Shown: positions 30,707 to 49,875 of the stretch, piece after piece
How positions within the stretch are numbered: position 1 is the first letter of the stretch
Layout: every line of letters starts with the position of its first letter
Virus record (IMG/VR): IMGVR_UViG_3300049489_000161
Location: 1 to 54,708 of that record
From: a virus
Taxonomy: Duplodnaviria > Caudoviricetes
Strand: one strand, 5' to 3'
Length of the DNA stretch: 54,708 nucleotides
Notes under the pieces: model-generated
Database searches by the model: none
What the model saw: only the letters and a program-made list of their open reading frames with translations
Told to the model about the DNA's origin: nothing
Made by a program: the position numbers and the translations under genes

Positions 30707-32692
30707 TTAGGCGGGTGCTCTCATCACGTTAGAGGGTTGAGTAGAGGTAGTCGAATACCCCTGTTCCATTTCAGGATTCGTTCCAGTAGATGCAGGAGTT
30801 TGCATACCTAGCTGCTGCATGATGACTTCCTGGGTCTGCCGCAGCATGGTCATCTGTTCCTGCAACATGGTCAGGGCCGTCTCTGTCATCGCCACCATGT
30901 CGTCTGTACCGGCGACGTTGGCGTTCAAGTTCTCCTCGAGAACAGCAATGCGCTGATCCCGCTCGTCTACTGCTTCAACATTGCCACCCCACATCAGCCC
31001 GATGTCCTTGGCAGAGGCCGAGCCGGACAGTTCGATCTGCTTGCTGATGATGTACTGCATGGCCTTGGCCGCCTGCGAGAGCATCTGCTGATCCTGTGAG
31101 GACGCCATAGCCGGCATCGCCTGGGACAGCGGGACGAACAGTTCGTTGAGGATGCGCAGCTGCTTCTCGTCTTCCATCTCCACCAGAGAGCCGGGCACCA
31201 CGCGCACCCAGTATTCGGTGGCGAGGTCGGCAAAATCGATCTCGATGGTGCCGTCCTCTTCGATGTACTCCGTACCGAGCCCGGCCTTCAGCAATCTCAG
31301 CCGGGCCTCCGCCGACGGCTTGATGCGCTTCACGGCCTGCAACTCGGCGAAGTACACCGTCAGTGCGTACGAGCAGTAGTGGCTGAAGAACGACTCGATC
31401 GCCTTCTGGTAGTTGTTCGTGGTGATGTCCACCATCGCCTGCTGCGCCTCGACACCCTGTGGTGTGGCCGACATCCCGCTTCCGGCCTGTGTCGCCATCT
31501 GCTGGTCGGCAGACCCGATCAGGTTCACCATGCTGCCGAGGTTCTGCTGACTGATCGTGCCGTACTGCATCAGCGTCTGGGTGTTCACCTCGAACGCCTC
31601 GATGCGGGCGTTCGGGTTGGAGACCTCGGTGTACTTGCCGGGGCTGAGGTTTGGCAGCGCGTTGACCGCGCCGAAGCCCAGGATGCTCGGGTTGATGTTG
31701 CGGTACCAGAGCTTCATCGCGCCGTTCAGCATCAAGTCCTGGAAGTCCTGCCGGCCGATCAGCAGTTCCACCTGAGACTTGCCCAGCGGCTGCTGGCTGT
31801 CCTTCTCCAGCACCAGGAAGTGGACCGGGTGCTGCTTGAGCGGGTGCTTGTTCTTCTCGATCCGCAGCAGATGTTTGGTGTGAGGGGAGAAGGTGAGGAA
31901 CGGCTCGCCACTGGAGGAGTACCAGGTGATGATCTCGTAGCCCTCGGGGACCATGCCGAACTTCCGGGTCTGGTAGTCCACCGAATCCCTGGACCGGCCA
32001 TACGGCGCCTGCTGCAGCATCGACTTCAAAGCCGCGATGTCCCAGCCGATGGTCTGGTCCCGGATCAGCGCATGCACTTCCGCCCTGGTCAGATACCTAC
32101 GGACGAACACGTTCTGCGCCTGGCGGATGTCCCGCACCCCTGGATCGGGAAACACATCCCGGTAGTGGATGGCGTCGTACTTCATGTACCAGCCGCCGGC
32201 GGCGTCCTGCAACAGCGTGGGGATCACCACGTCAAACCCGAGGGTCAGCGCGGTCTTCACCGACGCGAACAGGTTCTGCTGCATGTCGTTGCTGTACTCG
32301 TCAGACCCGATGATCTTCGTGGTCAGGATGTGCTTGGCGAAGATCCCTGGCATCGAGTCGTCATCGAACTCAGAGATCACCTCCACGTTCGGAGTGTTCT
32401 GCACCAGATTGCGCGCTATGCGGCGAATGAGTCCGGCTGTCTCACCCGAGGAGATGTTTGGCAAATCAGGCTTCGGGCTGATGACAGACCCGTCCGCCAA
32501 CTTCTCCAGTTTGTCGTAGGTCGCCACCCGGCGATCCATCTCCGACTTGTATCTCATGTAGGTCGAGTACATGCCAGAGCCGTAGGCACCAATGCCTCGA
32601 ACGTCGAGACTCCCGTCTCGGGGATCCAGCCGGTACTCGTCGTACCAATCCTCGAAGGAAGTGATGGGTTGCATCCCCAGATCTACTGCCAC
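30707..32692 (-). CDS. Portal protein (podovirus-like)
   Basis: 661 aa; ALTLGF, DVFPDP, PLGKSQVELL..Q, C-terminal coiled coil; precedes the capsid gene. Confidence 0.75.
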   Translation of the reverse strand: MAVDLGMQPITSFEDWYDEYRLDPRDGSLDVRGIGAYGSGMYSTYMRYKSEMDRRVATYDKLEKLADGSVISPKPDLPNISSGETAGLIRRIARNLVQNTPNVEVISEFDDDSMPGIFAKHILTTKIIGSDEYSNDMQQNLFASVKTALTLGFDVVIPTLLQDAAGGWYMKYDAIHYRDVFPDPGVRDIRQAQNVFVRRYLTRAEVHALIRDQTIGWDIAALKSMLQQAPYGRSRDSVDYQTRKFGMVPEGYEIITWYSSSGEPFLTFSPHTKHLLRIEKNKHPLKQHPVHFLVLEKDSQQPLGKSQVELLIGRQDFQDLMLNGAMKLWYRNINPSILGFGAVNALPNLSPGKYTEVSNPNARIEAFEVNTQTLMQYGTISQQNLGSMVNLIGSADQQMATQAGSGMSATPQGVEAQQAMVDITTNNYQKAIESFFSHYCSYALTVYFAELQAVKRIKPSAEARLRLLKAGLGTEYIEEDGTIEIDFADLATEYWVRVVPGSLVEMEDEKQLRILNELFVPLSQAMPAMASSQDQQMLSQAAKAMQYIISKQIELSGSASAKDIGLMWGGNVEAVDERDQRIAVLEENLNANVAGTDDMVAMTETALTMLQEQMTMLRQTQEVIMQQLGMQTPASTGTNPEMEQGYSTTSTQPSNVMRAPA

Positions 32693-35600
32693 TGCTTCAG
32701 CCTTCCTCGTTCGGATGAGACACGTTCTCGCCTGACGTCTGCCCGGCGAATCAACGGAGAGTTGGTGTTGATCATCGACACCGAATCGATCTGTGCGGCA
32801 CTCATCCCGGTGAAGAAGCTCATCCGCGTGATGTACGAGTTGGGTGTGAAGCCACCACCACCACCGCCGCCATAACCGCCACCACCCCTACGACTGTAGC
32901 CACCGTAGCTGCGGTATCCGCTAAACCGACCTCCACCGCTGATGGTGTCCTTGGGCGTGTAGGTCTTTTTCTTGATCTGTTCCAGGATCGAGTCGTTCGG
33001 AGTCACCTGGCCAGTCACCTGCGTCGGCTCCAACGAGGCGCGACCGGTGTTGAGGTTCTTCACATCGTCGACCGCGTTGCCGCGTTCATCGAGGCTCATC
33101 CCGTTGGCCGGCTTGATCATCCCGGCAGGGACCGGAAGCCCCAGCGCCTGGGCGATGGACTGACGTGGGAACGGCGTGGCCCACGGCCTACCGTCCGGCC
33201 CGATCACATACGTGGCGTTCAACTGGTTGTACTCCGCAGAAGGTTGCGAGGGGATCTGGTTGGAGTACAGGATCTCCCGCAGCCCTGGTGAACTCGGGTC
33301 AGTGCTGTCACCGAAGTAGTACCTGTTGGCCCGGAACTTGGCCGCGGTCTCCGTCATGCCACGGTTCACGCCGTCCTGCACGATCCGATCCAGGATGCGG
33401 GCCTGCAGCAGATCCCGCTGTTCCTGCGAGGCGTAGAACCCCTGGAACCCTGGATCGTCAAGCGTGACCAGTCCGGCCATGAGCGACTTGACCATCGCCT
33501 CCTGGCCTTCGATCGACAGCTCCTCCCGGCCATTCCTCGAGATCGAGGTGCCCATCATCATCGCGTCAGCCATCGCATCGGCTTCCGCTTCCAGCGATTC
33601 AGGAGAGGAGGAGACGCCAGCCGCGATGTCCCGCTGCTCCAACTGCGGGATCAGCGCGGCCTTCAGCCTGTCGAACTGTTGCAGCTGCTCCTTGTACAAC
33701 TTGCCTGACTGCGCATCGATGTCGCCCTGGTTCCACCAGACATCCGCGGCTTCCGCCTGCGTCTTCAGGATCGACCCGATGTCGTCCTGGGACAGCAGTC
33801 CCGAGCCTCCGGCACCGAAGAACCTGGCGTAGACCAGTGCCTCCAGCGTCGCGTTGTCCACCGCTTCGGTCGGGACGTTCTGCGTCTTGACGACCATGTT
33901 CTCCCGGGCGAAGGAGCTGGGCCCCGTGATCTGCCCGGTGAACAGCGACAGCAGCACGGCAGCCGTGGCGTTGTTCTCCGCGTACTGGTGCAGGTAGGCG
34001 TCCCCGCCGCTGCGGGTCATGTACGCCAGCCCGCTGACCGGCTCCATGACCGGCTTCCCGTCAGCCCCGATCACCGGCTCGCCGTTGTCGTCCAGCACCG
34101 GAACTTCCTTCTGGTACTGCTGCAGCGCGTCGGTCTGCTGGGGCAGGCTCGACCCCTGCTGCAGGTCCAGCGTTCCGCCGTCCTTCGGGTTGGTCATCGC
34201 CACCAGCCACGGGTTGCGGTCATACTTGTCGAACGCACTGCGAATGCCGTTGACGAACTGGTTCTCGATCAGCGCCTTCTCGTACATCCCGACAATGGAG
34301 ATACCCAGCAGTGTGGTGGTGCTCAATCGTTCAGGGGATTCCACCCGGGCATCCGCCTCCGCGGACTCCTGCAGCAGTTTCGCTGTGAGATCCGCATCGC
34401 GGTACAGACTGAGCACCGAGTTCGGGATCGCGGAGACCCCATCGAGGAACCCTTGCGAGATCAGTCGGATGTCGCCGGTCTCGAAGAACCGCACCACCCC
34501 CATCAGTGGGGAGGTGAACTGACGCAGCACCCAGTGCGGGACGATCGCGGCGCGGCCACTCTCGTCCTTCTTGAACAGCGTGCCGAGCATCGGGATGTCA
34601 TCCAAGAAGATGGCGTCCTGGTAGCGGAAGTCGTTGGCCGCCTTCTGCGGGTCGTAGACCAGCGGGATGTTGAGGTAGGTGGCCTGCCGGCGGCGGCGCT
34701 TCTCCTCCTCGTCCTCCCCACCGAAGCCCAGGATCTCGGCGCCCATCATGCCGAACGCGAACAGCCCGGCCTGCGTCACCATGCCGCGCACGAACAGCCG
34801 GGACAGATCCAGTGTCTCGATGACGTCGTTGAAGTCCATCGGCTTGAACTCCAGTGACGGGTCTTTGCTGCGGTTGCGCACAATCCACGACCGCCACGGG
34901 TTCTCGCGTCCAGACAACGTCATCGCCACCATCTGATCGACACCGGTCATGCCGGTCAGGTAGGTCAGTGCGTTGACGTTGAAGCGCGTGAACAGGAACG
35001 GGATCTTCAGCGCGTGCCCGATCCATGTGCCGAAGCCCTCCTGCGCACACAGCGTCTCGATCGGGCGCATGAACAGCTTGGCGGCCACCGTGTTCTTCTG
35101 CGAACGGATGTTGCCCACCGCGTTGATGCCCATCTGATGTGGGTTGGCCTTCTTGGTACTGAACTTCTTCTTCAGCCACAGCGGGTCTTTCTTCATCTCC
35201 GCGACCAAGGTCTCCACGCTGACCACGTTGTTCGGGGCCAGTTCGAGGTACTCGATAGCGGCGGCCAGGTAGCGAATCGCCACCGACTTCTGCGACTGCC
35301 CGATCGTCGGATCGCTCATCACGCGAGAGACGGTCGTAGCCGTACGCTCCAGTGTTCGGCTGACCTTCCCGCCACTTGGCACAGTCTGTCCCTCAGCGTT
35401 GACCGTGCCACCAGGCTCGAGCAGCCCGGACTTGTAGGTCATCTCACCGAAGATCTCCCCGATGAACTCGGTCGAGTCCCCGAGGATCGTCGCCAACTGG
35501 TCGAGCATCTTCAGCTGCTCCATCGAGAACTTCGGCTCGACCCCCAGCTTCGATCCAATCGCGGCCGTCGTCTTCCCGCCCCGGCCCAGGTTGTTGCCCG

Positions 35601-38600
35601 ACAAGATGTTGGTGACGTTCTCGATCTGGTTACGGAAGAACGACTCCCCCAACGCCGACACCCACAGCGCAGGGTTGAACAGCCGGGTCGTGAGCGACAG
35701 ATGCACCGCGCCGCGCAGGAACAGCGACGAGTCTCGCAGCGACTCCTGGTACTGCGCACCGTTCTTGGCGTAGTCCTTCACGGACTTCTTCTTCTGGGGG
35801 CGGGCCTTGTTGTTCTTCAGCCACGCCTTCTGGTACGCGATCCGGTCGCTCATCTCCGTGATCTTGATGCTGCGCAACTGGTTCGCCATGTACTCATCAC
35901 TCGGAAGCCCGGCCAGCAGGCTGTGGGTGATGCTCATCGACTCCAGGATCGCGGGGTCTTGCATCAGAACCCGTGCATCAGGATCGACCGACAGGTACGG
36001 ACGGTTGCCGTCGGCATCCATCATCTTCGCCACGATCTCCTGCTTCACGCTCAGGCTCATCGTGTTGAAGTTGGGGTTCGATCCCTGGTACGTCACCCAG
36101 AACCCGTCCAGCGGGGACAGGAACATCGCCATGAACTCTTGATGGGACTCCAGCATCTGCCCCATCAGGGTCTCCACCCAGGAGCCCCAGTCGTTCTCGA
36201 CATCCTCGAACTTGCCGCGCTTGATCTGCTTGGTGGGCGACCACACACCGGCCTCGAACACCTTCCGCCAGAACACCACATGCTCCAACGGCACCATCGC
36301 ACCGTGCAACGGGTGCAGCCGGTGCGGGCCGGTGATGTTCTGACGCATCGCGGACACGGCCTCGATGTACATCTTCGCCGTGACCTGCTCGGTGTAGTCC
36401 GTTTGATCGGTGCGAGGGCCCGGAGTGCCGTACCACTGGCGCACCAGGAAGTCGATCTCCGCCCACTCCCCGTGCGTCAGCCCCAGGTCATCCAGCAGCT
36501 TGTTCCGGAGAACGACGGCCTTCTGCCATTCCTGCCGTTCCTTCTCCGTGTCTCCGCGCTGGATGACGTGCAAGTACGACGTCATGTCCTTCGTCGTGGA
36601 ATCCAGCCGGACATGCTCCAACGGGGTCAGATGCTTGAACGGGGAGAAGGACGGGTCTTCCGGCATGATCCGGGACACCATGCGCCACACCGTGTCCGCG
36701 TCATCCTCGAAGAGACTGATGGTGTTCTCTCCGTCGATGATCTCCTGCTGAGTGGGGAGCACCCTACGTGCGCCCTTCTTGCCGACCTCCTGCTGCTTGA
36801 CCAGCACCCGGCCGCCGACCGCTCCGGCGGTGATCCGGGAGTTGAACGGGGAAACGTCACTCTCACGGGAGAACGACGAATACGCCGCCCCGATCGGGTT
36901 CTTGTCAGACGCCACCACGTTGTTCAGTTGCAGCGACATCGGCCGCAGCATCGTCTTCGGTTTCTGCGGAGCGCCGTTCTTGTCCGGCAGCTCCTGGTAC
37001 ATGCGGACCCAGAAGGTCAGGTCTCCGTCAAAGTAGTGCTCCGGGACCACACGACCGTCGGGAAGCGTGATCTGGGGGAAAACCGCGTTCGCCTTGTCGA
37101 GGAGGTACTGGCGCATCTCCGGCCGACGCGGGTCGTTCAGCAACTGCGACAGGATCGCCGGCATGAACCCGACCATCGCCTCCCGGTTCGAGTCCGGCAC
37201 CGTCAGGAACCCCGGCAGCGACAACACCATGTCCGGGGTGACCCCCGGTGCGGCCAGTGCCGCCAGGACCGCGACGGCGATGTTGTCGATCGCGGAACTG
37301 CGGTTCGTGTCCAAGGCGATGCCGAGGGGCTGTACCGCGCCCGGCATCACCGACGCGAACAACTCGTTCAGTTCAGCGGCGAACGTCGTGAGCAGCCGTT
37401 CCTGATCCATCAACTGCAGGATCTGTGAACTGGTCAGCCCGTGGTTCATCTTGGACCAGCCATCGAGAAGCATCCGGAGCAGTTCTCTGCGCTCCGCGTC
37501 CGTACCCACCACGCCGGCAGGGACCAGGACATCCAGCAACTCGTTCTCGATGTCCCACCCGGTGACGGCGAACATGTTGCGGAACGTGTGGGATACGCCC
37601 CGGACACTGCCCTTGCTGGCGATGCCCTCCGTCGACGTGTACGACGCGATTCCGCGCGTGTTGCCTGCGATCGTCGACAGGTTGGACGTATAGCCCGTCT
37701 TCGGGTCCATGAACGAGATCGTGGTCTTGTTGCCAGTGCCCTCGGCGTGCAGCTTCAACGCCGCATCCTCGGTGACCAGGCCCACCAGTTCAAGCTTGCG
37801 GCGGTCCCGATCGACCTCCTCCACCTCCAACGGGGGTGGCACGGTCCAGTTCGCCTCCACATCCGCGGGACCGAACGCGACCCGCAGTTTCGGGAACGGC
37901 GTACCGTCAACGTCCTCCTGGTCCTGCCACTGCTGACGCAGGTTCTTGATGTGCTCCTCTTTCTCAGGGAGCTTGAACCCGATCCGCTGCAGCAGCACGT
38001 TGCCGTCACCGGCCACGCGGATGTACAGGTCACCAGCCATCACGGTGCTGCCCGGCTCGAAGACCTCCTTGCCCAGTTTCAGTGCGTCGAAGAAGTCCTT
38101 CAGCGCCTGCTCCGGCGGTTTCACCCCAACCTTGGTGGTGCCGTCAGGGTTCTGCTTGAAGAACGGGATCGAGTCCTTGTACTCGTTCCCGTACTTCTTG
38201 TCAGTCATCTGCCTCAGCAGCTGCTTGAAGCCGGGGCTGTTCGGATCTCCGTCGTCCGTCATGGCGAGCAGTTGCTTGGCGATCCGGTTGAACTGCGCCG
38301 TCTCACCCGTGCCCTTCTGGGGCGGGCCAAACAGCAGCAGATCGTTGGTGCCCGGCACAGAGACCGAGTAGTTCTTCGGCACCAGCAGCATGCTGAACCG
38401 GCGCCACTCCTTGGCCCGTGCCGGATCGATGACGCGGTTGCCCTCGGTGAGTTCGGAGAGCCAGTCCACCCATGCGTTCAGCTCGAAGTTGTCAGCGCGC
38501 TGCGGAGAGGTCTCCACCAGCGTCGACTCAAGCGCCTGCACCGTCTCGTTGACGTAGTCCTCGTCCTCGGTAGACGGCACGAAGAACTGCCCGGCATTGC

Positions 38601-41600
38601 CGAGATCCTTGTACCCGAGACCGCCCTCGAGCATCGCGCGGCTCAAGGACTGGCGCAGCAGCGTCGTCTTCGTGTTGCTGGCGAGCACGACGATCACACC
38701 TCGACGGGCGTACTCCTCCACCACCTTGGTGCCGACCTCGACCGCCTTGGTGTGCATCCCCCCGGCGTAATTGAGCAGCGACTGCAGATCGATGACCACA
38801 CCATCGCCGTAGGTCGGCGGGAACTTCATCCCGCTGAACCCGTCCTCCACCTGCTTGGCGGCCACCAGATGCCCGACGTTGCTGGTCTTCGACGCGGCCT
38901 GCTCATGCACAAACAGGATCCCCGAGCCGGCCATCAGCTTCTCCAGCGACTTCGCGTAGTGCGAGTTCAACAGATCGTTGACGACGTCCTGCGTCATGGT
39001 CTCCGGCAGCCCGAGGTACTTCAGCTTGCCGCCCAACTGCTCGGCCTGCACCATGTTCAGCAGCTGCTTCTTGTTGTCCTCGTTCTGGTCGTTGATCGCG
39101 CGCCGGCTCTCAAACCGGCGTTCGTCCTGCGCGGCCTGCTGACCCTGCCACTCCTGCAACCGCAGTTGCCGCAGTGTACGGATGTCCGTGCGCTCATCGG
39201 AGGCGATCAGGCGTGCCTTGGAAACGGGGGCCACCTTGCCGAGCACGGTGTTCCCCAGTTCCTCCAGCGTCACTTCCTCGCCAAGATCCCCCAGACCCAG
39301 CCGCTCCAGCCGTTCCTGGCTGTACTGCGGGGTGCTGTACATCTCAATGATGTCCACGTACGTCTTGTCCGTGCCGTACCCGGCCCGGCCCAGAATCCTC
39401 TGGGTGACTTTTTCGCTGTTCGCCACGAACTTCGGCGGGTCGCCAGCTTTGTCCAGACTCTCCAGGGGCATCGTGCCGCCCTGGGATTCGTACGCGATCC
39501 ACTTCTCCGCCGGCCAGACCTCCTTGAGACCTGTCGACGGGTTCCGCCCCATTACGACGTGGCGGGACTTGACGTACTTGTAGAGCGCGGTCAGGTCGTC
39601 CACCTGCAACCGGCCATGCGGGAACATCGCGGTGGCGAGCGCCATCGTCTTGCGTTCCAACATCTCCGTGAGCGTGGCCGAGTTCTCCTCGAAGTCCTTC
39701 GTGCGTCGCAACGCGCTGGTCCGGAACGCCCGGAACGACTGGCCCTGCTTCGTGATCGCGTCCAGCGGGATCTGCAACCCCGTGCCGAACACACCGCTGA
39801 CCGCGTACAGCATCGATGCGATCAGGCCGACCTCGCTGCGTCCTGCCGACGCCCGGCCCACGCCGTCGAAGTACACGTTGTTCGCGTACTCCGGGCCCGG
39901 CGGCTTCTTGTTGACGTCCACATAGGTGATCGAGATCGTGGCACCGGTGGCCGGGATCAGCTGCGGGTTCTTCGTCAGGTACTTGAGCAGCACGTCCAGG
40001 TTCAGCGACTTCAGAGGGGACGAGCGCGTGTTCTCGTCGAGCATGATCGTGTCGCCCACAATGTCGCGCAGTGGCACGGGCACGCCCGTGTCCGCCGGAG
40101 TGATGTTCACCTCCCACACCGCGTGGTTGTGGATGCGCAGGTACGCCTCTCGATCCAGGTAGTCCTGCAGATCAAGCGAGGTGTTCGGGTCCAGCACAAA
40201 CTCACGGGTGGTGGTGTGCGCCGCCAGGTCCACATCCTCCGAGGTGGCGAACCCTGTGGCGATCCACACATCCATCTCGTCGTTCGTGACGCCCTCCATC
40301 TGCACGGCCGCCTCCACCGAGGCCCCGTCCAGCAGCTTCCGCGCCTTCGCCAGGTGCATCGGGATGCGGTCGTGCCACTGCCCGAGCCTGTTCTGGGGGT
40401 ACAACTCGGTGAGGATCTGCTCCGCGGCCTCGTCCATGCGAGTCATGCGGGGGTCGAGCGTCGTGGCAGCGATCGCTTCGACGGCATCCAGCACCCGCGG
40501 GTGGAACAGCGGGTCGGACAGCGACGCCCAGGACGTGTCGTACAGCTTCCGCACGTCGTCGACGTTCTTGCCGAGGATGATCGGCAGCACCCGGGTGTCG
40601 TCGGACGACCGGACAGACCGTTCACTGATCGTCAACGTGGCACAGAACTCCCCGAGCTGATCCCACTGCTCGGGAGTCAGCACGTCCGCCGTCTGCTCGC
40701 TGAACACACGCGAGTCGTTGTTCGTCCACACCAACTCCCGGAACTTCGCCAGCAGCTGGTAGATGTTCTGCTCGGTGCCGGGGGTCGTATCGATCTTCGC
40801 CTTGTAGCCGGCGAACTTGTTGATCCGCTCCTGCGTACCGAGGAACTGGACGATCGCCGTCTTCTTCACGAAGTCGAACTTCTTGTCGTCGGCGGAACGA
40901 CCGTGGCTGAGTTGGAACGTCTTTAGGACGGAGGCGTACTCCATGCGGGACCGGAACGCCAGCAGATCCGACAGGTCAGCATTCTTCGCGTGGTCGATCC
41001 CGTCCTGCGCCTCCTGCATCCGGCGTTCCAGCTCCGCCCGCACCACCGGATCGGTGGCCGACTTCAACTGGATCCGGGCTTCCTCGAACCGGTCAACGGC
41101 GGCCAGGCCCATGAGGTCGCGCACCGTGTCCTCGTGGAGCTGCTTCTCCGCGTCCGACATCGGAGCGATGTACTCGAGGTACGCCGTGTCGTCGCCCCAG
41201 AACCGCTTCTGCAGTTCCGCTGAGATCAACTGCTGCAAGTCTGGCAGAGAGGCCTTCTGCACGTTCGCCAACGACTTCAGTACTCGGTAGACGCCGATCA
41301 CCAGCTTGTCCCGCACCTGCTGGAGACTCTGCTCGGTGACACTCTCGGCGGTCGTGTAGGCCACGATGAACGAGTCAATCATGTTGGAGATCGGGAAGAA
41401 CCCGTCCTCCCACGCCTCAGCGGTGCCCTCCTCCACGGCGGCGTTGCGGATGAACGCCTCGACCATGCTGATGTAGCGGTACGCCCGGCGCAGCTCCGGC
41501 TCGTCCGCTGTCGGGTTGAACAGCGAGGCGAACGAGGTGTCCTGCAGCAGATGTCCGATGTTGGAGGTCTGCACACCGTTCGAGTAGGTCTGCACCGTAC

Positions 41601-44600
41601 CCACCGGGTTCACGTCCCGCATCGTCGGGAACAGCACCAGCTTGGCGAACTCCTGCGTGCGAGGATCATGCAGCATCTGCAGCGCCGTCTCCTCGTCGGA
41701 CATGTCCAACTCGACCAGGCGGCCATTCTCCAACTGGATGCGCACCGGGCCCTTCGCCAGCTTCGACAGGTTCGTCGCCACCTGATCCCAGGACAGCGTC
41801 GTCAGCGCCGCGGACTCCGCCCGCAACGCATTGCCGAACCCCCACATGTCGGCCATCGTGATCGCCTCACCCATCGGGCGGGTCAGATCAGGCGGCAGCC
41901 CCTTGTCGTGGGCACGGAAGAACATGTCGTACATCGCCGTGTACAACTGCTGCATCGCGTTCGGGCCGACACCATCAGGGAACGCCTGGGCATTGCGGAT
42001 TGCCCGGCGCAGGAACCCCAGCATCTCGGCGGAGTTCGTGTCCTTGCCGGTGTTCTGCACCTCGGCGCGGATCTCCTCCACCGTCTGCCGCTGACTCACC
42101 GGCTTCTTGTTGTTCTCCGCGATACGTGCGGCGATCTCGTCTTTCTGCCACGCCAGCTCCTCCTGCATCGCTGTCGTGATCCGGGCGTTCGAGTCGCTGT
42201 CCGCCTTGCGCTGCACAAGAGCCTTCGACATCGGCTCGGCCATCTGGGAGAAGTCGGCGATCGCATCCAGCACCTGCTGCTGGCTGTTCCCCGCGCCCCA
42301 CTGGTTGCGGGCATTCACCTCGTAACCGGCTTTGTCGTCATCGAACGGCAGCAGTTCCGGGCGTCCGGCCAGCCACACCGGGTTGGCGTTGATCTGCGTG
42401 TACAACTCCTCGATGCTCTGCGCCCTGGCGACCGCCTCCCAGAACAACTGCCGCTGCCGGCCGCCGTCCTCGAGCGTGTTCAGGATGTACGCCGTCTGCA
42501 GGAACCGGGACTGGATCTGATCCCAGCGCACCACCCCCTCGACACCGTCCTCCAGCTTGTCCTTCGTCGGAGTGTTCGCCATCACGTTCCACTCGGCGAT
42601 CAACGTGTTGACGTGCCAGATCAGCGCAGCCTTCTTCGGATCGGTCTCGGTGAGCGCCTGCTCCACCCAGTCCCGCATGTGGACCTCGCCGCCCACCACC
42701 TCGACGACGCCCAGGGCGGCGCCGTTCGGGATCATCGCGGCGATCTTGCGGGCAACCCGCTCGTCCCCGGTGCGCAGCATGTCGTTCAGCACGGCCCGGC
42801 GGTCGGAGGCATCCAGCGACGGATACAGCATGGCCCAGGCGTCGATCATCTCCGACAGATCCTTCAGCCCGTTCTCGAACTGGCGCCGGGCCTTGTCGGA
42901 ACGGTCCTGCCGCTTCTTCTGCTCCGCCGATGTGCTGGTACCCAGCGCGTCGATCAGCATCGTGTAGGAGTTCATCTGCAGCGCGCCGTCCGGCCCGGTC
43001 TGCGTCAGCACGTCCGCGCCCCACGGAGGGTTGCCGATCCCATGTTTCTTCGAGTAGTCGGCCGCCCGCCTCAACATCGCCATGAACGCGGCGCGGTCCT
43101 TCTCGTTCTTCGACAGGGACAGCTCCATCAACTGCCGCAGCGTCACATGCGGGCCGATGTACATCGAGGCCTTGCCCAGCAGCTCGTACAGCGACGTGTC
43201 GGAGAACACCTCCATCATCGCCAGCGCCGCCGTGTTCGAGTTGCCGCCCTGCTTGGCGTTGTTGCGGGTCAGCGGGCGCAGCGTCTGGATCTTCTTCATG
43301 ATCGGAGAGTCCGGATCGGCACCCTCCTGCATCTCGAGCTCGACGTCGAGGCTCTTGCCGAGCAGCATCTGCAGCATCGACACCTGCTCGCCCGGCACGA
43401 TGCCGAACACCCCGCCGTCCTTCACCACCGCCGGCACCCGCATGTTGGCGACGTACAGCAGCAGCTCCGTCTCCGACAGGTTCGGGAACTTGCCGGCGAT
43501 CCCCTCCGAGGCGATGATCTGCTTCAGCCAGTAGACCGTGCGCTCCTGGATCCGGTCGCGGCCCAGCATGCCCTCGCTGTCCGACTGCGTCTTGCCGGCA
43601 CCCAGCTTCGCGTACAGCTCCACCAGCTTCGCCTGGCCTGCGACCGCGTCCGCCATCTGATCGGCGTCCATCGCGCCCAGCACGGTCGCCGAGTTGTACA
43701 GCGCCGAGTAGTGGAGGAACTGCTCGGGGCGGGTCTGCGCCGCCGATCCCAGCATCATCAACGCATCACCATGCGTCTTCGCCATCCACCGTGCCACTCG
43801 CTTCAGCACCGAACTGGGTGCAGGAACCGCGGGCTTCAGCGGGTTCACGATGACGTCCTCACGGTTGACGTCGCGCCAGTAGGCGAACTCCTGCTGGATC
43901 GCGTCGAACTCCACCGAGATCATGTTCCAGATCTGCAGCGCCTCCGGGCGGCCCGTGCTGTCACCCATCGCCAGCAGCGCCTCCCCGCCAAGGTCGTACA
44001 TCCCCTTCACCAAGATCGTGCGGGCGTCCGTGACATTTGCCAGGACGTTCGCCTGGAACTGCTTGAGCAGCGCCCGGAACTCCTTGGCCGGCTGCAGCAC
44101 CCTGCCGTACCGCTGCTCCAGCCGGGCGCTCAACCGCAGCAGTCCCAGCACCACCTTGTCGTGCAGGTCGGAAGGGTTCAGCGGATCGGAGAACGCCTCA
44201 ATGTAGATGGCCTCCGCATCCGGCACCCCGATGTTGATCTCCCACCCGGTGTCCGATCCCACCACGGTGCCCTGGTCATCCACCCAGGTCGTGTTCCGCT
44301 GTGCGTACTGGTTGCCGCGCCGGATGTTCGCCAGCTGCTCCGGCGGCTCGTAGGTACTGGCGATCTCCACCGCGTTGTCACCGTCGTGATCGCCGTTCAA
44401 CGTCTTCAGCACGGACTCGTCGAAGCTCATCGTGCCGTGGATGTCGGCCGCCGACATCACCAGCGACACCTGCGGCACGAACACCGCGAACGATCCCTGC
44501 CCAGTCAACGGGTTGCGGACCATCTTCAGCTCGACGACCTTGCGCATCGCCTCCGCCATCGAGTCCGTCACCGGCACCAGGTTGCCCGTCGCCGGGTCTT

Positions 44601-47337
44601 TCACCTTGAACTTCTTCTCGAACACCCAGTTCAGCTTCTCGTTGAACACCCGGGTCGCCTCGGTCTTGGCGGCCGTATCGTCGAACGAGATCTGGACGTA
44701 CTTCAAGTACAGGTCGTACAGCAGCCCCGGCTTCTGCCGGGTGCCCACCAGCATCTCGGCGGCCTGTACCGTCTCCGCCAGATCCGCGATCGTGTCGTTC
44801 GCCACCCGGATGTTGTCCTGCGCCTGCGCCGCAGCATCCGTATCCCCGGCGGCCTGCGCCGCGGCCAGCTCCTGGGTGTACGTGTCGAGCAACTGCTGCG
44901 CACGTTCGCGCTGTGTCTGCAGACCATCGACGTTGGTCAGCAGGTTCTCCATCACGGATTCCATCGACATCACCGCAGCGTTCACCGCGAACTCGTTGCC
45001 GTCGACACGACCGTCCTCGAGCACCACCCGTGAGGAGGACCGGCCTGTCAGCAGCGAAGACTTGCCACCGATCGAGTCCTTCTTGCGGGTGTCCGCCGCC
45101 ACCGCGTTCTGCCGCAGCAGATCCTGGATCTCACGCGCCACCGGGGAGTCGAACGAGGCCATCTTCTGGCCCTCGTTCAGCATGTTCATCAACGCCCGGA
45201 CCTCGGCGTCCTCCTTCGGGGTGGCGATCGCCAGCTTCTCGATCTCCGACTTCGTCATCCCCGAGGTGATCTGCTTCCACTCCTGCTCGGTCGGGGGATT
45301 CCCGGACATCCGCATCGCGTACAGCAACCGGGCCCGGTTGTTCACCACCTGATCGGAGGTGGCCCGCTTGTTCAGCGTGCCCAGCCCCATGCCCATGCCG
45401 CCGGCGAACCCGTACGCTGCGGCCCACGCCATCTGCGCCGGATCGAGATCCTCGCTCAGACTCATCGGCTCGAACGCCGCCTGGATGAACTCCTCACCAC
45501 CTTCGGCATACCCGGTGATCAGCGCGTCCCGGAACCGGGAACCCTGCCGAGTCATCCCAACCGCCGCGTTGTAGTAGTCGTCCATGAACGAAGCCGTGCC
45601 GTCATCCAGCATCCGGGCCTGCCGCGCCAGATAACTAGTCGGCACCATCCGCAGGAACTCGCTCGGCGCGGCCAACTGCAACGTCGGGGAGATCTTCACG
45701 ATGTTGCCGTCAGCATCCCGGCGGAACCGCATCCCGTTCAACACCTCGTCGTCGGCACGGGAGGCCAGCCAATCCCTGGTACGAGTCGGCAGCACGGCGT
45801 CCGCCACCTTGGTGGTGACCCTCTCCTGCACGTCCCGCAACGTGGTGTACTGCAACGGCTTGTCCGTCACTTTCCCGAGGATCTTCGGGGCGGCAGCCGT
45901 GGCCAGGTCATCCGCGCTCTGCCCCGGCGTGGTTCTCGCGGTGGCGGTCGCGGCACTGGCCCGGGACGCCTGCGCCGCCCGTCCGATCGCGCCGGCCATT
46001 CCCACCTGCAGCGCATCGATCGTCGTCTTGCCGATCGCGCCGACCCACTCCTGACGGGTCGTGTAGGGGTCGAAATCCCCGCGGGCCTCGTTCCATCCCT
46101 CACCGACGACCAGCTGACCCACCCCGCCGATCGTCATCGCACTCATCGTGCCCATGTACATCGCACGGCCCGCCGGGTTGGAGAACTGCATCACGCCATC
46201 GGCCAGCGCCGCCCCGACATCCAGCACCTGGACCCAGCCCGGAGCCTTGCGCGACCCATCCGGGTTGGTGTCGTAGAACGCCACCGTGTTGTCACCGATG
46301 TCGCCGAACCCCACCTCCGACATACCGTGGCTCAGGTTCTGCGTCACGTTCATCAACTTCGTGCCGACCTGCGCATACTGTTGCAGCCACGTCCCGGCGC
46401 CGCCGAACAACTGGTCCGTACCCTCATACCGGGCATTCGCGCGACTGGCGATCACACTGGCACGGGCCGCCGTCTCCACCAGCTCGTCCTGGTTCAAGTA
46501 CCCGGCCACCGTGCCCAGGCCGAACCCGATCACACCACCGATCGCCGCTCCGACCGGGCCGCCGATACTGCCGAACGCGGCACCCTGCGCCGCTGTGGTG
46601 AGACCGGCACCGGCGATCAGCGCATTGTTCTGCCACCCCTCGAACCGATTCTCCGTCGCCTCGAGATCGTCCTTGTACTGCTCGGCCTGTGGCGCGTACA
46701 ACGCCTGCTCCGACCGCTCGCTGCGTTTCGCGTTCACCGCCAGGGACAACGCCTCAGGGTTCGAGCGCAACGCCTCGAACTCCCGGCCCTTCTCCTCCCG
46801 GGTCATCACGAAGTCCGACATCATCGTGTCGGCCGTCTTCGCGTCGAACGTGTCGTAGACGTTCCCCTGCTTCTGGCCGTTGACGAAGATGTCCCCGAAC
46901 CGCAGATCCTTCTTCTCGTCGTCCCACGTCACGACACCCGTGGCCTTGTAGCCCTCGGTGTCGGCGCCCGGATCGAACTGGGAGAAGAACACACTGGCCC
47001 GATCCTCATCGAACGCCTTCTGCTGCCAGACGTTCGACTGCTTGATCATCTGGTTGTAGAAGTCGGTGTTCCACCCGTTCTCCGTGCCACCGGCATTCGC
47101 CCCCGTGTACCACTGCGGGGCGACCTCCATCATCGAATCCTGAGGAGCCCACGGCTGAAGACCCTTCCGGCCCTGGTCGATCCACAGATCCTGGTCGCGG
47201 GCGAACCGCTCGGACGCCTGCGCCATCCCCAACGGCGCGGCAGGACTGTCAGCCTGCTTCTTGAACTGGGACTGACCACCCTTGAAATCGACCACGACGT
47301 GACGCCCCTTCGATGACCGCTGCTCTTGGGCCACCAT
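32683..47337 (-). CDS. 4884-aa giant virion protein, predicted single-chain two-barrel RNA polymerase / ejection protein
   Basis: Uninterrupted ORF; VRNP...NGDHDGD (aa 940-987), GSTVMAGDLYIRV (~3100), LKLHAEGTGNKTTIS (3194-3208); Gly-rich hydrophobic segments. Confidence 0.75.
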   Translation of the reverse strand: MVAQEQRSSKGRHVVVDFKGGQSQFKKQADSPAAPLGMAQASERFARDQDLWIDQGRKGLQPWAPQDSMMEVAPQWYTGANAGGTENGWNTDFYNQMIKQSNVWQQKAFDEDRASVFFSQFDPGADTEGYKATGVVTWDDEKKDLRFGDIFVNGQKQGNVYDTFDAKTADTMMSDFVMTREEKGREFEALRSNPEALSLAVNAKRSERSEQALYAPQAEQYKDDLEATENRFEGWQNNALIAGAGLTTAAQGAAFGSIGGPVGAAIGGVIGFGLGTVAGYLNQDELVETAARASVIASRANARYEGTDQLFGGAGTWLQQYAQVGTKLMNVTQNLSHGMSEVGFGDIGDNTVAFYDTNPDGSRKAPGWVQVLDVGAALADGVMQFSNPAGRAMYMGTMSAMTIGGVGQLVVGEGWNEARGDFDPYTTRQEWVGAIGKTTIDALQVGMAGAIGRAAQASRASAATATARTTPGQSADDLATAAAPKILGKVTDKPLQYTTLRDVQERVTTKVADAVLPTRTRDWLASRADDEVLNGMRFRRDADGNIVKISPTLQLAAPSEFLRMVPTSYLARQARMLDDGTASFMDDYYNAAVGMTRQGSRFRDALITGYAEGGEEFIQAAFEPMSLSEDLDPAQMAWAAAYGFAGGMGMGLGTLNKRATSDQVVNNRARLLYAMRMSGNPPTEQEWKQITSGMTKSEIEKLAIATPKEDAEVRALMNMLNEGQKMASFDSPVAREIQDLLRQNAVAADTRKKDSIGGKSSLLTGRSSSRVVLEDGRVDGNEFAVNAAVMSMESVMENLLTNVDGLQTQRERAQQLLDTYTQELAAAQAAGDTDAAAQAQDNIRVANDTIADLAETVQAAEMLVGTRQKPGLLYDLYLKYVQISFDDTAAKTEATRVFNEKLNWVFEKKFKVKDPATGNLVPVTDSMAEAMRKVVELKMVRNPLTGQGSFAVFVPQVSLVMSAADIHGTMSFDESVLKTLNGDHDGDNAVEIASTYEPPEQLANIRRGNQYAQRNTTWVDDQGTVVGSDTGWEINIGVPDAEAIYIEAFSDPLNPSDLHDKVVLGLLRLSARLEQRYGRVLQPAKEFRALLKQFQANVLANVTDARTILVKGMYDLGGEALLAMGDSTGRPEALQIWNMISVEFDAIQQEFAYWRDVNREDVIVNPLKPAVPAPSSVLKRVARWMAKTHGDALMMLGSAAQTRPEQFLHYSALYNSATVLGAMDADQMADAVAGQAKLVELYAKLGAGKTQSDSEGMLGRDRIQERTVYWLKQIIASEGIAGKFPNLSETELLLYVANMRVPAVVKDGGVFGIVPGEQVSMLQMLLGKSLDVELEMQEGADPDSPIMKKIQTLRPLTRNNAKQGGNSNTAALAMMEVFSDTSLYELLGKASMYIGPHVTLRQLMELSLSKNEKDRAAFMAMLRRAADYSKKHGIGNPPWGADVLTQTGPDGALQMNSYTMLIDALGTSTSAEQKKRQDRSDKARRQFENGLKDLSEMIDAWAMLYPSLDASDRRAVLNDMLRTGDERVARKIAAMIPNGAALGVVEVVGGEVHMRDWVEQALTETDPKKAALIWHVNTLIAEWNVMANTPTKDKLEDGVEGVVRWDQIQSRFLQTAYILNTLEDGGRQRQLFWEAVARAQSIEELYTQINANPVWLAGRPELLPFDDDKAGYEVNARNQWGAGNSQQQVLDAIADFSQMAEPMSKALVQRKADSDSNARITTAMQEELAWQKDEIAARIAENNKKPVSQRQTVEEIRAEVQNTGKDTNSAEMLGFLRRAIRNAQAFPDGVGPNAMQQLYTAMYDMFFRAHDKGLPPDLTRPMGEAITMADMWGFGNALRAESAALTTLSWDQVATNLSKLAKGPVRIQLENGRLVELDMSDEETALQMLHDPRTQEFAKLVLFPTMRDVNPVGTVQTYSNGVQTSNIGHLLQDTSFASLFNPTADEPELRRAYRYISMVEAFIRNAAVEEGTAEAWEDGFFPISNMIDSFIVAYTTAESVTEQSLQQVRDKLVIGVYRVLKSLANVQKASLPDLQQLISAELQKRFWGDDTAYLEYIAPMSDAEKQLHEDTVRDLMGLAAVDRFEEARIQLKSATDPVVRAELERRMQEAQDGIDHAKNADLSDLLAFRSRMEYASVLKTFQLSHGRSADDKKFDFVKKTAIVQFLGTQERINKFAGYKAKIDTTPGTEQNIYQLLAKFRELVWTNNDSRVFSEQTADVLTPEQWDQLGEFCATLTISERSVRSSDDTRVLPIILGKNVDDVRKLYDTSWASLSDPLFHPRVLDAVEAIAATTLDPRMTRMDEAAEQILTELYPQNRLGQWHDRIPMHLAKARKLLDGASVEAAVQMEGVTNDEMDVWIATGFATSEDVDLAAHTTTREFVLDPNTSLDLQDYLDREAYLRIHNHAVWEVNITPADTGVPVPLRDIVGDTIMLDENTRSSPLKSLNLDVLLKYLTKNPQLIPATGATISITYVDVNKKPPGPEYANNVYFDGVGRASAGRSEVGLIASMLYAVSGVFGTGLQIPLDAITKQGQSFRAFRTSALRRTKDFEENSATLTEMLERKTMALATAMFPHGRLQVDDLTALYKYVKSRHVVMGRNPSTGLKEVWPAEKWIAYESQGGTMPLESLDKAGDPPKFVANSEKVTQRILGRAGYGTDKTYVDIIEMYSTPQYSQERLERLGLGDLGEEVTLEELGNTVLGKVAPVSKARLIASDERTDIRTLRQLRLQEWQGQQAAQDERRFESRRAINDQNEDNKKQLLNMVQAEQLGGKLKYLGLPETMTQDVVNDLLNSHYAKSLEKLMAGSGILFVHEQAASKTSNVGHLVAAKQVEDGFSGMKFPPTYGDGVVIDLQSLLNYAGGMHTKAVEVGTKVVEEYARRGVIVVLASNTKTTLLRQSLSRAMLEGGLGYKDLGNAGQFFVPSTEDEDYVNETVQALESTLVETSPQRADNFELNAWVDWLSELTEGNRVIDPARAKEWRRFSMLLVPKNYSVSVPGTNDLLLFGPPQKGTGETAQFNRIAKQLLAMTDDGDPNSPGFKQLLRQMTDKKYGNEYKDSIPFFKQNPDGTTKVGVKPPEQALKDFFDALKLGKEVFEPGSTVMAGDLYIRVAGDGNVLLQRIGFKLPEKEEHIKNLRQQWQDQEDVDGTPFPKLRVAFGPADVEANWTVPPPLEVEEVDRDRRKLELVGLVTEDAALKLHAEGTGNKTTISFMDPKTGYTSNLSTIAGNTRGIASYTSTEGIASKGSVRGVSHTFRNMFAVTGWDIENELLDVLVPAGVVGTDAERRELLRMLLDGWSKMNHGLTSSQILQLMDQERLLTTFAAELNELFASVMPGAVQPLGIALDTNRSSAIDNIAVAVLAALAAPGVTPDMVLSLPGFLTVPDSNREAMVGFMPAILSQLLNDPRRPEMRQYLLDKANAVFPQITLPDGRVVPEHYFDGDLTFWVRMYQELPDKNGAPQKPKTMLRPMSLQLNNVVASDKNPIGAAYSSFSRESDVSPFNSRITAGAVGGRVLVKQQEVGKKGARRVLPTQQEIIDGENTISLFEDDADTVWRMVSRIMPEDPSFSPFKHLTPLEHVRLDSTTKDMTSYLHVIQRGDTEKERQEWQKAVVLRNKLLDDLGLTHGEWAEIDFLVRQWYGTPGPRTDQTDYTEQVTAKMYIEAVSAMRQNITGPHRLHPLHGAMVPLEHVVFWRKVFEAGVWSPTKQIKRGKFEDVENDWGSWVETLMGQMLESHQEFMAMFLSPLDGFWVTYQGSNPNFNTMSLSVKQEIVAKMMDADGNRPYLSVDPDARVLMQDPAILESMSITHSLLAGLPSDEYMANQLRSIKITEMSDRIAYQKAWLKNNKARPQKKKSVKDYAKNGAQYQESLRDSSLFLRGAVHLSLTTRLFNPALWVSALGESFFRNQIENVTNILSGNNLGRGGKTTAAIGSKLGVEPKFSMEQLKMLDQLATILGDSTEFIGEIFGEMTYKSGLLEPGGTVNAEGQTVPSGGKVSRTLERTATTVSRVMSDPTIGQSQKSVAIRYLAAAIEYLELAPNNVVSVETLVAEMKKDPLWLKKKFSTKKANPHQMGINAVGNIRSQKNTVAAKLFMRPIETLCAQEGFGTWIGHALKIPFLFTRFNVNALTYLTGMTGVDQMVAMTLSGRENPWRSWIVRNRSKDPSLEFKPMDFNDVIETLDLSRLFVRGMVTQAGLFAFGMMGAEILGFGGEDEEEKRRRRQATYLNIPLVYDPQKAANDFRYQDAIFLDDIPMLGTLFKKDESGRAAIVPHWVLRQFTSPLMGVVRFFETGDIRLISQGFLDGVSAIPNSVLSLYRDADLTAKLLQESAEADARVESPERLSTTTLLGISIVGMYEKALIENQFVNGIRSAFDKYDRNPWLVAMTNPKDGGTLDLQQGSSLPQQTDALQQYQKEVPVLDDNGEPVIGADGKPVMEPVSGLAYMTRSGGDAYLHQYAENNATAAVLLSLFTGQITGPSSFARENMVVKTQNVPTEAVDNATLEALVYARFFGAGGSGLLSQDDIGSILKTQAEAADVWWNQGDIDAQSGKLYKEQLQQFDRLKAALIPQLEQRDIAAGVSSSPESLEAEADAMADAMMMGTSISRNGREELSIEGQEAMVKSLMAGLVTLDDPGFQGFYASQEQRDLLQARILDRIVQDGVNRGMTETAAKFRANRYYFGDSTDPSSPGLREILYSNQIPSQPSAEYNQLNATYVIGPDGRPWATPFPRQSIAQALGLPVPAGMIKPANGMSLDERGNAVDDVKNLNTGRASLEPTQVTGQVTPNDSILEQIKKKTYTPKDTISGGGRFSGYRSYGGYSRRGGGGYGGGGGGGFTPNSYITRMSFFTGMSAAQIDSVSMINTNSPLIRRADVRRERVSSERGRLKQWQ

Positions 47338-47590
47338 ATCGGACGCCGCGGCGGAAGATCGGGTCTGACGCGAACCCCCACACCCATCCCTGGGTATCCC
47401 ACATGCGGCCGGGTTGTCTCACGAAACGTCTCAGCATGGGTTCAGATCAGAGCGAACCCATCACCCGGACGCCAACAACAGGAAACACCCACAGCAACTG
47501 TAGGGACGGGATACCCACAGAGGGCTTTTCAGGGGTTTCGTTGGGTGCGGTTAGGTGTCAAGGGTGAAAAATGGAAACTTTTGTGTGAAG

Positions 47591-47720
47591 TACCAAAACA
47601 AACAATAGAAACAAATAACACAACACTATACCCCCTATACATATTGATATGTATGGATATGGGTATTACTGAAATCCATTTCAGGTGTTGTGGTTGATTA
47701 GGTTGTGTCTGGTTTTGGTA
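47591..47720. promoter_or_regulatory. AT-rich branched inverted repeat between the divergent arms
   Basis: taccaaaac/gttttggta, cacaacac/gtgttgtg, ataccc/gggtat, atacatat/atatgtat, ctgaaat/atttcag. Confidence 0.6.
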
Positions 47721-47747
47721 ATGATGCCAATGAAAGGACTGTCTCAC

Positions 47748-48047
47748 ATGTCTGAGAATCCACTGCAAAGTCTGCTCGGTGCTGCTTCAGCTGCTGCAAT
47801 CGCTAACATCTCTCGTACTCCGGAACAGCGTGCCGCTGATTCAGCCGGTGTTGACTTGCTGTCCGCACAGGTCCTCGGTGTTCTCATCGAACAACGAAAG
47901 GAGCTGGCGGGTCAGCACAAGATTGAGCGTGAAGACGCGAAGGCCAACAACATGGCTGTCGGCTCTGCCGAATGGAAAGAGATGGTCGATGGACAAAAGC
48001 GAGCAATCGCTGCCATCGATGCAATGATCGCACGCCGCGGTCGTTAA
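47748..48047 (+). CDS. Hypothetical early protein (99 aa)
   Basis: AAAGGA RBS before MSENPL; followed by a terminator. Confidence 0.8.
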   Translation: MSENPLQSLLGAASAAAIANISRTPEQRAADSAGVDLLSAQVLGVLIEQRKELAGQHKIEREDAKANNMAVGSAEWKEMVDGQKRAIAAIDAMIARRGR

Positions 48048-48053: not shown

Positions 48054-48085
48054 GAGATCCCTTCGGGGATCTCCTCTCTTATTTT
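48054..48085 (+). terminator. Rho-independent terminator with cUUCGg loop
   Basis: gagatccc-ttcg-gggatctc followed by a pyrimidine/T run. Confidence 0.8.
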
Positions 48086-48242
48086 CTATCCCGCTTTTTT
48101 TCACACGCTCACACGTTGACGTCTTCAATAACGTCAAACAGAAACTTCCTCGCCTAGTCGCGTGACGTTTGCACTCAGGCTACTGAGTGACCGGCTCCAT
48201 CTTGGCGAGGTGTGTGTGAGTGTGTGATTGTTTGCGGGATAG
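48086..48242 (+). ncRNA. Candidate structured ncRNA (or ssDNA structure)
   Basis: Nested stems ctatcccgc/gcgggatag, tcacacgctcacac/gtgtgagtgtgtga, ttgacgt/acgtcaa, cctcgcc/ggcgagg, cactcag/ctgagtg. Confidence 0.5.
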
Positions 48243-48327
48243 GTACTTCACATACGCTACGCGGCGTAGCTCAAATCACTCGACACCGTTGATGATCATC
48301 AAGGTTGTCCGGTGATCAGCCTCAAAA

Positions 48328-48533
48328 TGTAGACACCCCTCACTGTCTACAGGGTGTCTACATCCGGCACCGAGGTGTCTACATTCAGCCCAGATGCCTG
48401 GTTTTCTCGCACGTTAGTACGAAAACCCGGCCCTTTGGTGGTATGTAGACACATGTAGACAACGAAAAAAACCCCTTTAAGGAAAGTGTATATATATAAA
48501 GGGGGTCAACTTTTTGTGACTACGGTGTCTACA
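48328..48533 (+). repeat. TGTAGACA-box cluster including element copy B (48444-48533)
   Basis: Boxes at 48328, 48344, 48355, 48376, 48444, 48454 and 48526, plus a degenerate one at 48517. Confidence 0.9.
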
Positions 48534-48626
48534 CCCCAGTCCCAGCGCCCCAGCGTCGGGTGACACTCCTGATTCCGGGCGACGACATGGCTCCACTTCA
48601 GTGCGGATCTCACTCCTAATCACCTC

Positions 48627-48657
48627 TCGGTTGCGACCTCGTATCGGTTGCGACCTC
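48627..48657. repeat. 14-bp direct repeat TCGGTTGCGACCTC x2
   Basis: 48627-48640 and 48644-48657; degenerate third copy near 48663. Confidence 0.85.
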
Positions 48658-49803: not shown

Positions 49804-49875
49804 ACCTCAGACGTGGCCCCGCTGCTGCTGCTCCCCCGCCAGCAGCGGGGTCACCTTCCACAAGGAGAATCAGCA

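Follow-up and report, generated by a model that had tools for sequence, protein, structure and literature searches.

Giant genes of about 13 kb take up a quarter of the genome in cluster EK and Burro-type Microbacterium phages, and since 2020 they have counted among the largest viral genes, with virion-associated products. Jacobs-Sera et al. (2020) singled out the giant gene as what stands out most in cluster EK and Burro; in the portion of that report available to us its role is given as not known, a band of ~250 kDa in Burro virions is attributed to the giant protein gp27, and comparison of the Microbacterium giants with the N4 polymerase found no similarity (PMC7302621). Fakhre et al. (2021) also listed the giant protein as having an 'unknown function' (PMC8281081), in agreement with an earlier note on the DNA studied here, in which the giants of similar actinophages are not known to have an assigned function. 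We analyzed a gene of this kind in a 54,708-nucleotide virus record (IMG/VR IMGVR_UViG_3300049489_000161; Duplodnaviria, Caudoviricetes), the full length of which is referred to below as the window. The open reading frame (ORF) spans positions 32683-47337 on the minus strand, begins with an ATG and encodes 4884 residues. The earlier note had read the product as a single-chain, virion-packaged two-barrel RNA polymerase. Comparison of sequences and profiles leads us to favor, with moderate confidence, the view that the giant protein is an ejected internal virion protein containing a beta'-type double-psi beta-barrel (DPBB-A), most probably a DNA-dependent RNA polymerase that would start phage transcription.

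Among the phage enzymes with which this protein can be compared, phi14:2 gp66 (PDB 6VR4) is likewise a large single chain from a podovirus, packaged in the virion and encoded beside structural genes. According to the part of its description at hand (bioRxiv 10.1101/2020.03.07.982082), gp66 was first recognized by a DFDxD motif, a limited likeness to one barrel and its packaging in the virion, and was later proven to be a polymerase; it has 2180 residues, the motif DFDID, and barrel B followed by barrel A across a connector of ~140 residues. P23-45 gp96 is also a giant virion protein (5002 residues) with a two-barrel polymerase part, in which B again precedes A, joined by a connector of ~67 residues (613-679; PMC10770324, available in part). 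P23-45 is a siphovirus whose tail is very long, and gp96 serves as its tape measure, whereas the giant protein comes from a podovirus; P23-45 also possesses a second polymerase, gp64, and none was found in the genome of the giant protein. The phiKZ-type enzymes are multisubunit and belong to jumbo phages, in contrast to the one 4884-residue chain in a 55-kb podovirus described here. The virion RNA polymerase of coliphage N4 belongs with the T7-like single-subunit polymerases rather than with the two-barrel enzymes. At ~3500 residues it is a functional analogue: as far as the accounts available to us go, it is giant, packed in a podovirus capsid and ejected together with ejection proteins.

A conserved, putative catalytic block in the giant protein

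The earlier note had quoted three motifs. The first, MVRNPLTGQGSFAVFVPQV...NGDHDGDNAV, was located in the translation at nucleotides 44377-44523 and contains R941 and D983/D985/D987. All three motifs were found at the residues given for them, with nucleotide ranges right to within 1-3 nucleotides, and the spacings of ~2,100 residues between the first and second and ~90 residues between the second and third were reproduced. Conservation, a PDB profile search and hhalign support a DPBB-A-like catalytic block around the first motif at 44302-44556 (minus strand, residues 928-1012). Within this block, R941-N-P943 (44509-44517, minus strand) is the counterpart of NRAP in beta', of RNP in phiKZ gp55 and P23-45 gp96, and of RIP in gp66, and was aligned to the R-x-P of beta', gp64, gp96 and phiKZ gp55. 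P23-45 gp96 reads RNPVMGHGG at this point and the giant protein reads RNPLTGQGS. The putative Mg-binding triad D983-H-D985-G-D987 (44377-44391, minus strand) was aligned to the DFDGD of beta', phiKZ gp55, gp64 and gp96.

Conservation was measured in a MAFFT alignment of 84 full-length relatives of more than 4300 residues, with identity down to ~22%. This analysis revealed that R941, P943, D983, D985, G986 and D987 are each present in 84/84 sequences, and that no family member has a gap or insertion in the stretch 940-1000. DxDGD occupied the site in 99 of 104 family proteins; the other five are fragments that start downstream of it. The spacing from the Arg to the first Asp was 42 residues in 81/84 members, 43 in two and 41 in one, which is close to the 35-40 residues that a by-eye count gave for beta', gp64, gp66 and gp96. 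The pattern D.DGD occurs once in the 4884-residue protein, and a motif that is single in the protein and invariant across diverged relatives reflects more than chance.

The second position of the motif was variable, with H in 31/84, Y in 26/84 and F in 24/84 members. The frequency of H at a position expected to hold F or Y would fit a decayed polymerase remnant that has been kept as a structural module, with the host polymerase transcribing all phage genes, and a precedent of sorts is offered by phi14:2 gp66, whose motif is altered and whose crystal conformation is incompatible with catalysis (bioRxiv 10.1101/2020.03.07.982082, in the part available). We consider such a remnant highly improbable, because the Asp triad, the Gly and the upstream Arg and Pro are invariant in a family that has diverged to ~22% identity, which argues for selection on chemistry. 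For the favored polymerase, we infer that residues ~930-1010 fold as a double-psi barrel that would bind Mg.

Similarity of the block to RNA polymerase catalytic subunits

To compare the block with known structures, a profile of 85 columns (residues 928-1012 from the 84 members) was searched against 177,635 distinct PDB sequences. The top match was phiKZ gp55 (7ogp_A; E = 3e-5, 27 bits), with an alignment running from R-N-P-T-L-Q-R-G-S to N-A-D-F-D-G-D. The next matches were the split phage beta' chains 7s01_d and 7s00_d (E = 1.3e-3), which we take to be those of Bacillus phage AR9. These best database-wide matches share R-N-P-T-x-x-x-G-S and (N/G)-(A/G)-D-(F/Y)-D-G-D, with the same spacing. 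Further matches at E = 0.1-0.6 comprised bacterial beta', the largest subunits of Pol I and Pol III, and cyanobacterial gamma. Altogether 86 sequences were matched at E ≤ 10, and among the best 60 of these, 56 were named RNA polymerase, two were tape-measure chains and two were unrelated. The two chains named 'tape tail measure protein' were matched at 772-801 and 454-484, and the first of these positions fits the DFDGD of P23-45 gp96 at 779.

The block was also compared by hhalign with a profile of the beta' barrel, for which 80 bacterial rpoC loci were used. Residues 900-1060 aligned with a Prob of 80.7% (E = 1.3e-5), and trimmed cores reached 85.9% and 89.9%, with E ranging from 1e-5 to 2e-6. 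The alignment of residues 900-1060 placed R-x-P on NRAP, the hydrophobic strands on beta' strands and DxDGD on DFDGD. The observed score of 33.9 was reached by 0/150 column shuffles (mean 10.2, sd 2.4, maximum 24.4). When the whole 4884-column family profile was scanned, residues 935-1006 were the top region for the beta' barrel profile, for full-length beta' and for E. coli beta' alone, and equally for gp64 alone, the gp64 family and the N-terminal 1200 residues of gp96; hhalign placed the family block on gp96 739-801 and gp64 283-333. Calibration against the same beta' profile showed that families of proven polymerases score worse (gp66 family, P = 0.02; gp64 family, P = 5.8e-4), and the block of the giant family is thus nearer to beta'. 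The Pfam family PF00623 was matched by 4/84 core fragments (E ≤ 10; best E = 1.2e-4) and by 1/10 diverse full-length members (E = 0.0097). Taken together, the PDB profile search, the hhalign probabilities and the shuffles support the by-eye alignment of the motif with the beta' catalytic barrel, and three of the features that mark the two-barrel superfamily were found in the block, namely the DxDGD triad, the upstream R-x-P and a significant profile similarity of the barrel.

An observation on the phiKZ reference may be recorded here. PDB chain 7ogp_A is named PHIKZ055 plus PHIKZ056.1, which correspond to 7923-9185 and 10576-10761 of the phiKZ record with an HNH endonuclease gene between them, and the annotated phiKZ gp55 ends at the R of the R-N-P motif.

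A candidate second barrel

The second and third motifs lie in a conserved block at 37534-38064 (minus strand, residues 3092-3268), which is the candidate for the second barrel and contains G3102, R3118/G3120, K3195, K3204 and K3242. The 'flap-like' motif FEPGSTVMAGDLYIRV corresponds to residues 3092-3107 (38017-38064), and the third motif LKLHAEGTGNKTTIS, with K3195 and K3204, lies at 37714-37758. K3195 was conserved in 84/84 members, K3204, R3118 and G3102 in 83/84, and K3242 and G3120 in 82/84. A check proposed in the earlier note, conservation of R-P, DxDGD and both lysines in homologous giant proteins, therefore had a positive outcome.

Scanning of full-length beta gave weak colinear alignments, with residues 3084-3114 on beta 863-893 and residues 3187-3263 on beta 1057-1128 (P = 0.43 and 0.57), in which K3195, K3204 and K3242 are paired, without significance, with K1065, K1073 and R1106. 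Whole-profile scans returned weak matches within 3054-3263 for beta, the gp66 core, gp64 and phiKZ gp123, each at P of at least 0.13. We infer that a second barrel exists and that residues 3090-3265 are its best candidate, with R3118, K3195, K3204 and K3242 predicted to face the active site. The 'flap-like' pattern G-x-x-V-x-x-G-D may be a generic barrel-sandwich signature.

Evidence against the assignment and a structural alternative

A number of results weigh against assignment of the giant protein as a two-barrel polymerase. Targeted hhalign of the candidate block against beta gave a Prob of 1%, and in the shuffle test its score of 12.0 (shuffle mean 10.3) was reached by 25/150 shuffles. 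Residues 3060-3280 gave nothing significant by hhalign against the beta window, gp64, gp66 or gp96, and the 84-member profile of residues 3092-3268 found no polymerase in the PDB, returning three unrelated matches with E of at least 0.34. None of the 84 members matched a beta Pfam family, and no similarity was found to phiKZ gp68, gp71, gp73, gp74, gp80, gp123 or gp149. In gp66 and gp64, where the second barrel is proven, the same approach likewise fails to find it, either against beta or against each other, and the negative result for the second barrel of the giant protein is for this reason uninformative. Searches for a bridge helix and trigger loop gave no match beyond beta' 420-481 or to phiKZ gp74, and had no positive control. 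The proposed order of the barrels, A then B and ~2,200 residues apart, reverses that of the single-chain enzymes set side by side in the P23-45 paper, which run B, connector, A (PMC10770324, in the part available).

Other results of this kind concern the catalytic block itself. Both the gp66 single sequence and the gp66 core profile missed residues 935-1006 in whole-profile scans, and the gp66 family aligned weakly, at the right place, in targeted hhalign (P = 0.043). No PF00623 match was obtained for 80/84 core fragments; the giant protein itself matched 0 Pfam families at E ≤ 1, and the curated cut-off of PF00623 (25.3 bits) was not reached. A phmmer search of the PDB with the whole protein gave only noise, as did full-length family profiles, where phiKZ gp55 appeared only at E = 0.69-1. 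The signal comes largely from ~10 residues: when the DxDGD columns were omitted, the upstream half gave P = 0.29 against beta' and P = 0.069 against the gp64 family, the latter weak but correctly placed. Finally, presence in virions is known only for the protein of Burro, which is 24-25% identical in the tested region. What stood of the single-chain two-barrel polymerase proposed in the earlier note is the catalytic block, together with the literature and the genome context described below, and the candidate second barrel remained without a significant match; the flap-like motif and the two lysines are present and conserved, and lack significant similarity to beta by a method that also misses the second barrels of gp66 and gp64.

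Several of these findings are shared with an alternative in which the giant protein has an exclusively structural role in ejection or tail extension ('tape-measure-like'), its DxDGD binding a structural metal such as Ca2+ and its likeness to polymerases arising by convergence of the motif. The similarity is lost once the DxDGD columns are removed, neither a second barrel nor another polymerase element was detected, and most of the 4884 residues are unmatched, no further domain having been recognized by Pfam and PDB profile searches. The Araxxi and Arete homologues also carry the RefSeq label 'tail length tape measure protein'. A structural role would likewise accommodate a Gly/Ala-rich hydrophobic, membrane-type segment at 46498-46641 (minus strand, residues 233-280), the only hydrophobic segment at a similar N-terminal position in 6/6 members examined. 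Here hhalign placed residues 242-270 on residues 191-222 of the P22 ejection protein gp7, its C-terminal hydrophobic part (P = 8.5e-4), in a Gly-rich match that composition may drive; PF25688 (P22 gp7 type) was matched by 1/10 diverse members (E = 2.1e-4), again over a Gly-rich hydrophobic stretch. The only PHROG matches of the giant protein, to two PHROGs of the function-unknown type, fall at residues 218-279.

A purely structural protein is nevertheless unlikely in our view. The PDB-wide profile matched polymerase catalytic subunits almost exclusively, its best alignments extend over R-x-P-x-x-x-x-G-S as well, 42 residues upstream, family members keep R-x-P at a fixed spacing that is near that of known enzymes by the by-eye count, and the hydrophobic strand pattern between the two motifs aligns too. 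Moreover, P23-45 gp96 unites a tape measure with a polymerase (PMC10770324, in the part available), so that ejection and polymerase functions are not exclusive.

Genome setting

The favored reading of the giant protein as an ejected RNA polymerase was also considered against its genome, which CheckV rates as 100% complete and which has a G+C content of 57-66%. The ORF list and translation place the giant ORF first in the structural block on the minus strand. The portal gene follows at 30707-32692 (minus strand), and its product shares 58% identity with gp28 of Microbacterium phage Araxxi, which is annotated as the portal; the start of the portal ORF overlaps the end of the giant gene by 10 nucleotides, and an identical 10-nucleotide overlap exists in Araxxi gp27/gp28. 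The minus-strand genes further downstream encode a large terminase, a beta-helix tail spike and a collagen-repeat minor tail protein. Heading this block and overlapping the portal gene, the giant gene sits inside the structural module, as is characteristic of virion polymerases, and the earlier description of it as the head of the virion operon was confirmed. Identity to the Araxxi counterpart is ~24% for the giant protein compared with 58% for the adjoining portal, which indicates that the giant gene evolves much faster than its neighbor.

Upstream of the giant gene, an intergenic region at 47338-47748 is AT-rich at ~47560-47700 and separates the giant gene from a small divergent plus-strand gene (47749-48047). 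No sigma-70-like site was found in 47338-47748, and an early-promoter search in the genome gave only unexplained repeats. The plus-strand genes encode a family A DNA polymerase, a helicase, a DUF5906 protein, a primase-polymerase, a PD-(D/E)XK nuclease and an AAA ATPase. A six-frame Pfam search was performed on five records, the source genome and four related virus records, 4/5 of which are rated at least 90% complete. It gave 0 matches to the cellular-type polymerase subunits PF00623 and PF00562, to sigma-70 region 2 (PF04542) and to the T7-type polymerase PF00940, the search with PF00940 having had no positive control. A Pfam scan of 20 large ORFs found no polymerase or sigma family either. 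Within the five records, and with PF00940 uncontrolled, these data agree with the earlier claim that the phage lacks any other RNA polymerase.

The gene content also bears on whether a two-barrel polymerase might have some other task here, such as primer-making, RNA-dependent synthesis or DNA synthesis of the PolD kind, at genome entry or replication. The superfamily includes QDE-1, which is RNA- and DNA-dependent, and archaeal PolD (PMC10770324, in the part available), and the present data say nothing on template or product. We regard such a task as distinctly unlikely, given that the best matches are subunits of DNA-dependent RNA polymerases, that the genome already has a family A DNA polymerase, a primase-polymerase and a DUF5906-type protein, and that it has no recognizable transcription enzyme of its own.

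Family of giant proteins and cultured relatives

Relatives of the giant protein were sought with tblastn using residues 700-1500 against 50,697 phage records. This search returned 10 records, all of Microbacterium phages (Araxxi, Burro, Arete, DoTi and others), with matches of 24-25% identity that each lie within a 13.5-kb gene; megablast against phages gave no match. Nine proteins of 4578-4891 residues were added by a word-based search. An exhaustive search of representatives with residues 851-1450 identified 96 clusters at E ≤ 1e-3, with 73 at E ≤ 1e-10 and 26 at E ≤ 1e-30, and nearly all proteins in this 96-cluster family have 4400-4900 residues. Seven relatives are loci in IMG/VR and four are in metagenome contigs, and no relative was found in 185,579 prokaryote genomes.

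The family hidden Markov model scored 4389 bits for Araxxi gp27 and 2138 bits for Akoni gp31 (cluster EK2), with members matched over nearly their full length, and both proteins carry the same R-x-P...DxDGD block. The Microbacterium giants (Burro gp27, Araxxi gp27 and the EK protein Akoni gp31) are thus true homologues of the giant protein, and come from genomes of the same size (~54 kb); in Araxxi and Akoni the giant gene is likewise placed before the portal gene. They differ in sharing only 24-25% identity over residues 892-1499, against 58% for the portal, and in that the giant protein described here is ~390 residues longer.

Proposed mechanism and implications

If the giant protein acts as an ejected RNA polymerase, a few copies would be packed in the capsid near the portal and, upon infection, ejected through the short tail. 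The N-terminal Gly-rich hydrophobic segment would enter the membrane on ejection, and the polymerase part would reach the cytoplasm, where it could transcribe the first-entering genes without the host polymerase, as in N4, crAss-like phages and P23-45. More tentatively, the giant proteins could form a new family of two-barrel RNA polymerases, in which a chain of ~4,400-4,900 residues doubles as ejection apparatus, the barrels are permuted (A at ~980, B ~2,200 residues later), and barrel A is nearer to the beta' of jumbo phages and cells than to other single-chain phage enzymes. Such a family would extend over ~100 clusters of Microbacterium-phage-related podoviruses needing no host polymerase to start infection; we offer this fuller picture as a possibility, with distinctly less confidence than the polymerase assignment itself.

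A search of the full-text literature, with supplements outside its scope, found no paper linking the actinophage giants to RNA polymerase, and the 23 two-barrel families already described may be relevant to this point. The term 'RNA polymerase' does not occur in the available parts of the 2026 announcements of EK phages. Should the polymerase assignment be true, it would provide a testable function for the giant gene in cultured phages, whose laboratory host is harmless, and would add a further two-barrel lineage with a catalytic block closer to beta' than those of gp66 and gp64, which bears on the kinship of phage and cellular polymerases. It would also represent, alongside N4 and P23-45, a third independent fusion of a polymerase with genome delivery. 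A truly permuted barrel order would mean that the two barrels are joinable either way. Such an enzyme would be unusual in its size, its fusion with ejection functions, its possibly permuted order and its Actinobacteria-type podovirus hosts.

Other features of the giant protein and the window

The giant protein ends in a Gly/Arg/Tyr-rich stretch followed by an Arg-rich C-terminal tail with W-Q as its last residues (32686-32949, minus strand, residues 4797-4884). R4864, R4865 and R4872 of this tail are conserved in 84/84 members and W4883 in 83/84, and conservation in the protein is highest over its last 1,000 residues. Another block, strongly conserved, at residues 530-660 (45358-45750, minus strand), contains invariant P558-S559-E560 (E560 in 82/84), E612, E615, E616, Q619 and G643/G647/G649-M650. 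This block has no match to anything known and might serve as a second site of catalysis or metal binding. As an N-terminal alternative for the second barrel it was ranked lower, its match to beta 1093-1132 being weak and a conserved basic residue being absent.

Elsewhere in the window, a non-coding region of ~740 nucleotides at 48074-48812 holds five of the six copies of GTGTCTACA, in both orientations, where 0.14 would be expected. The region also contains three tandem 17-mers (48627-48677) and several inverted repeats, and resembles iterons, operators or promoters. The sixth copy of GTGTCTACA, at 13501-13509 (minus strand), falls in the gap between the minus-strand ORFs 13587-17177 and 12613-13419; the former is the second-largest ORF of the window, with 1196 residues and no Pfam or PHROG match. 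At 49414-49443 and 49774-49803 there are two near-identical 30-mers, 360 nucleotides apart, where chance would give 0. The stretch that they enclose has no obvious ORF, and a hairpin comes after them at 49813-49854; Rfam has no family at this 30-mer and hairpin stretch. Between these regions, at 48813-49410, two small plus-strand genes with good ribosome-binding sites were identified by eye where the ORF list gives minus-strand ORFs instead, and the second of them starts with a lipoprotein-like signal (…ITAVTAGC…).

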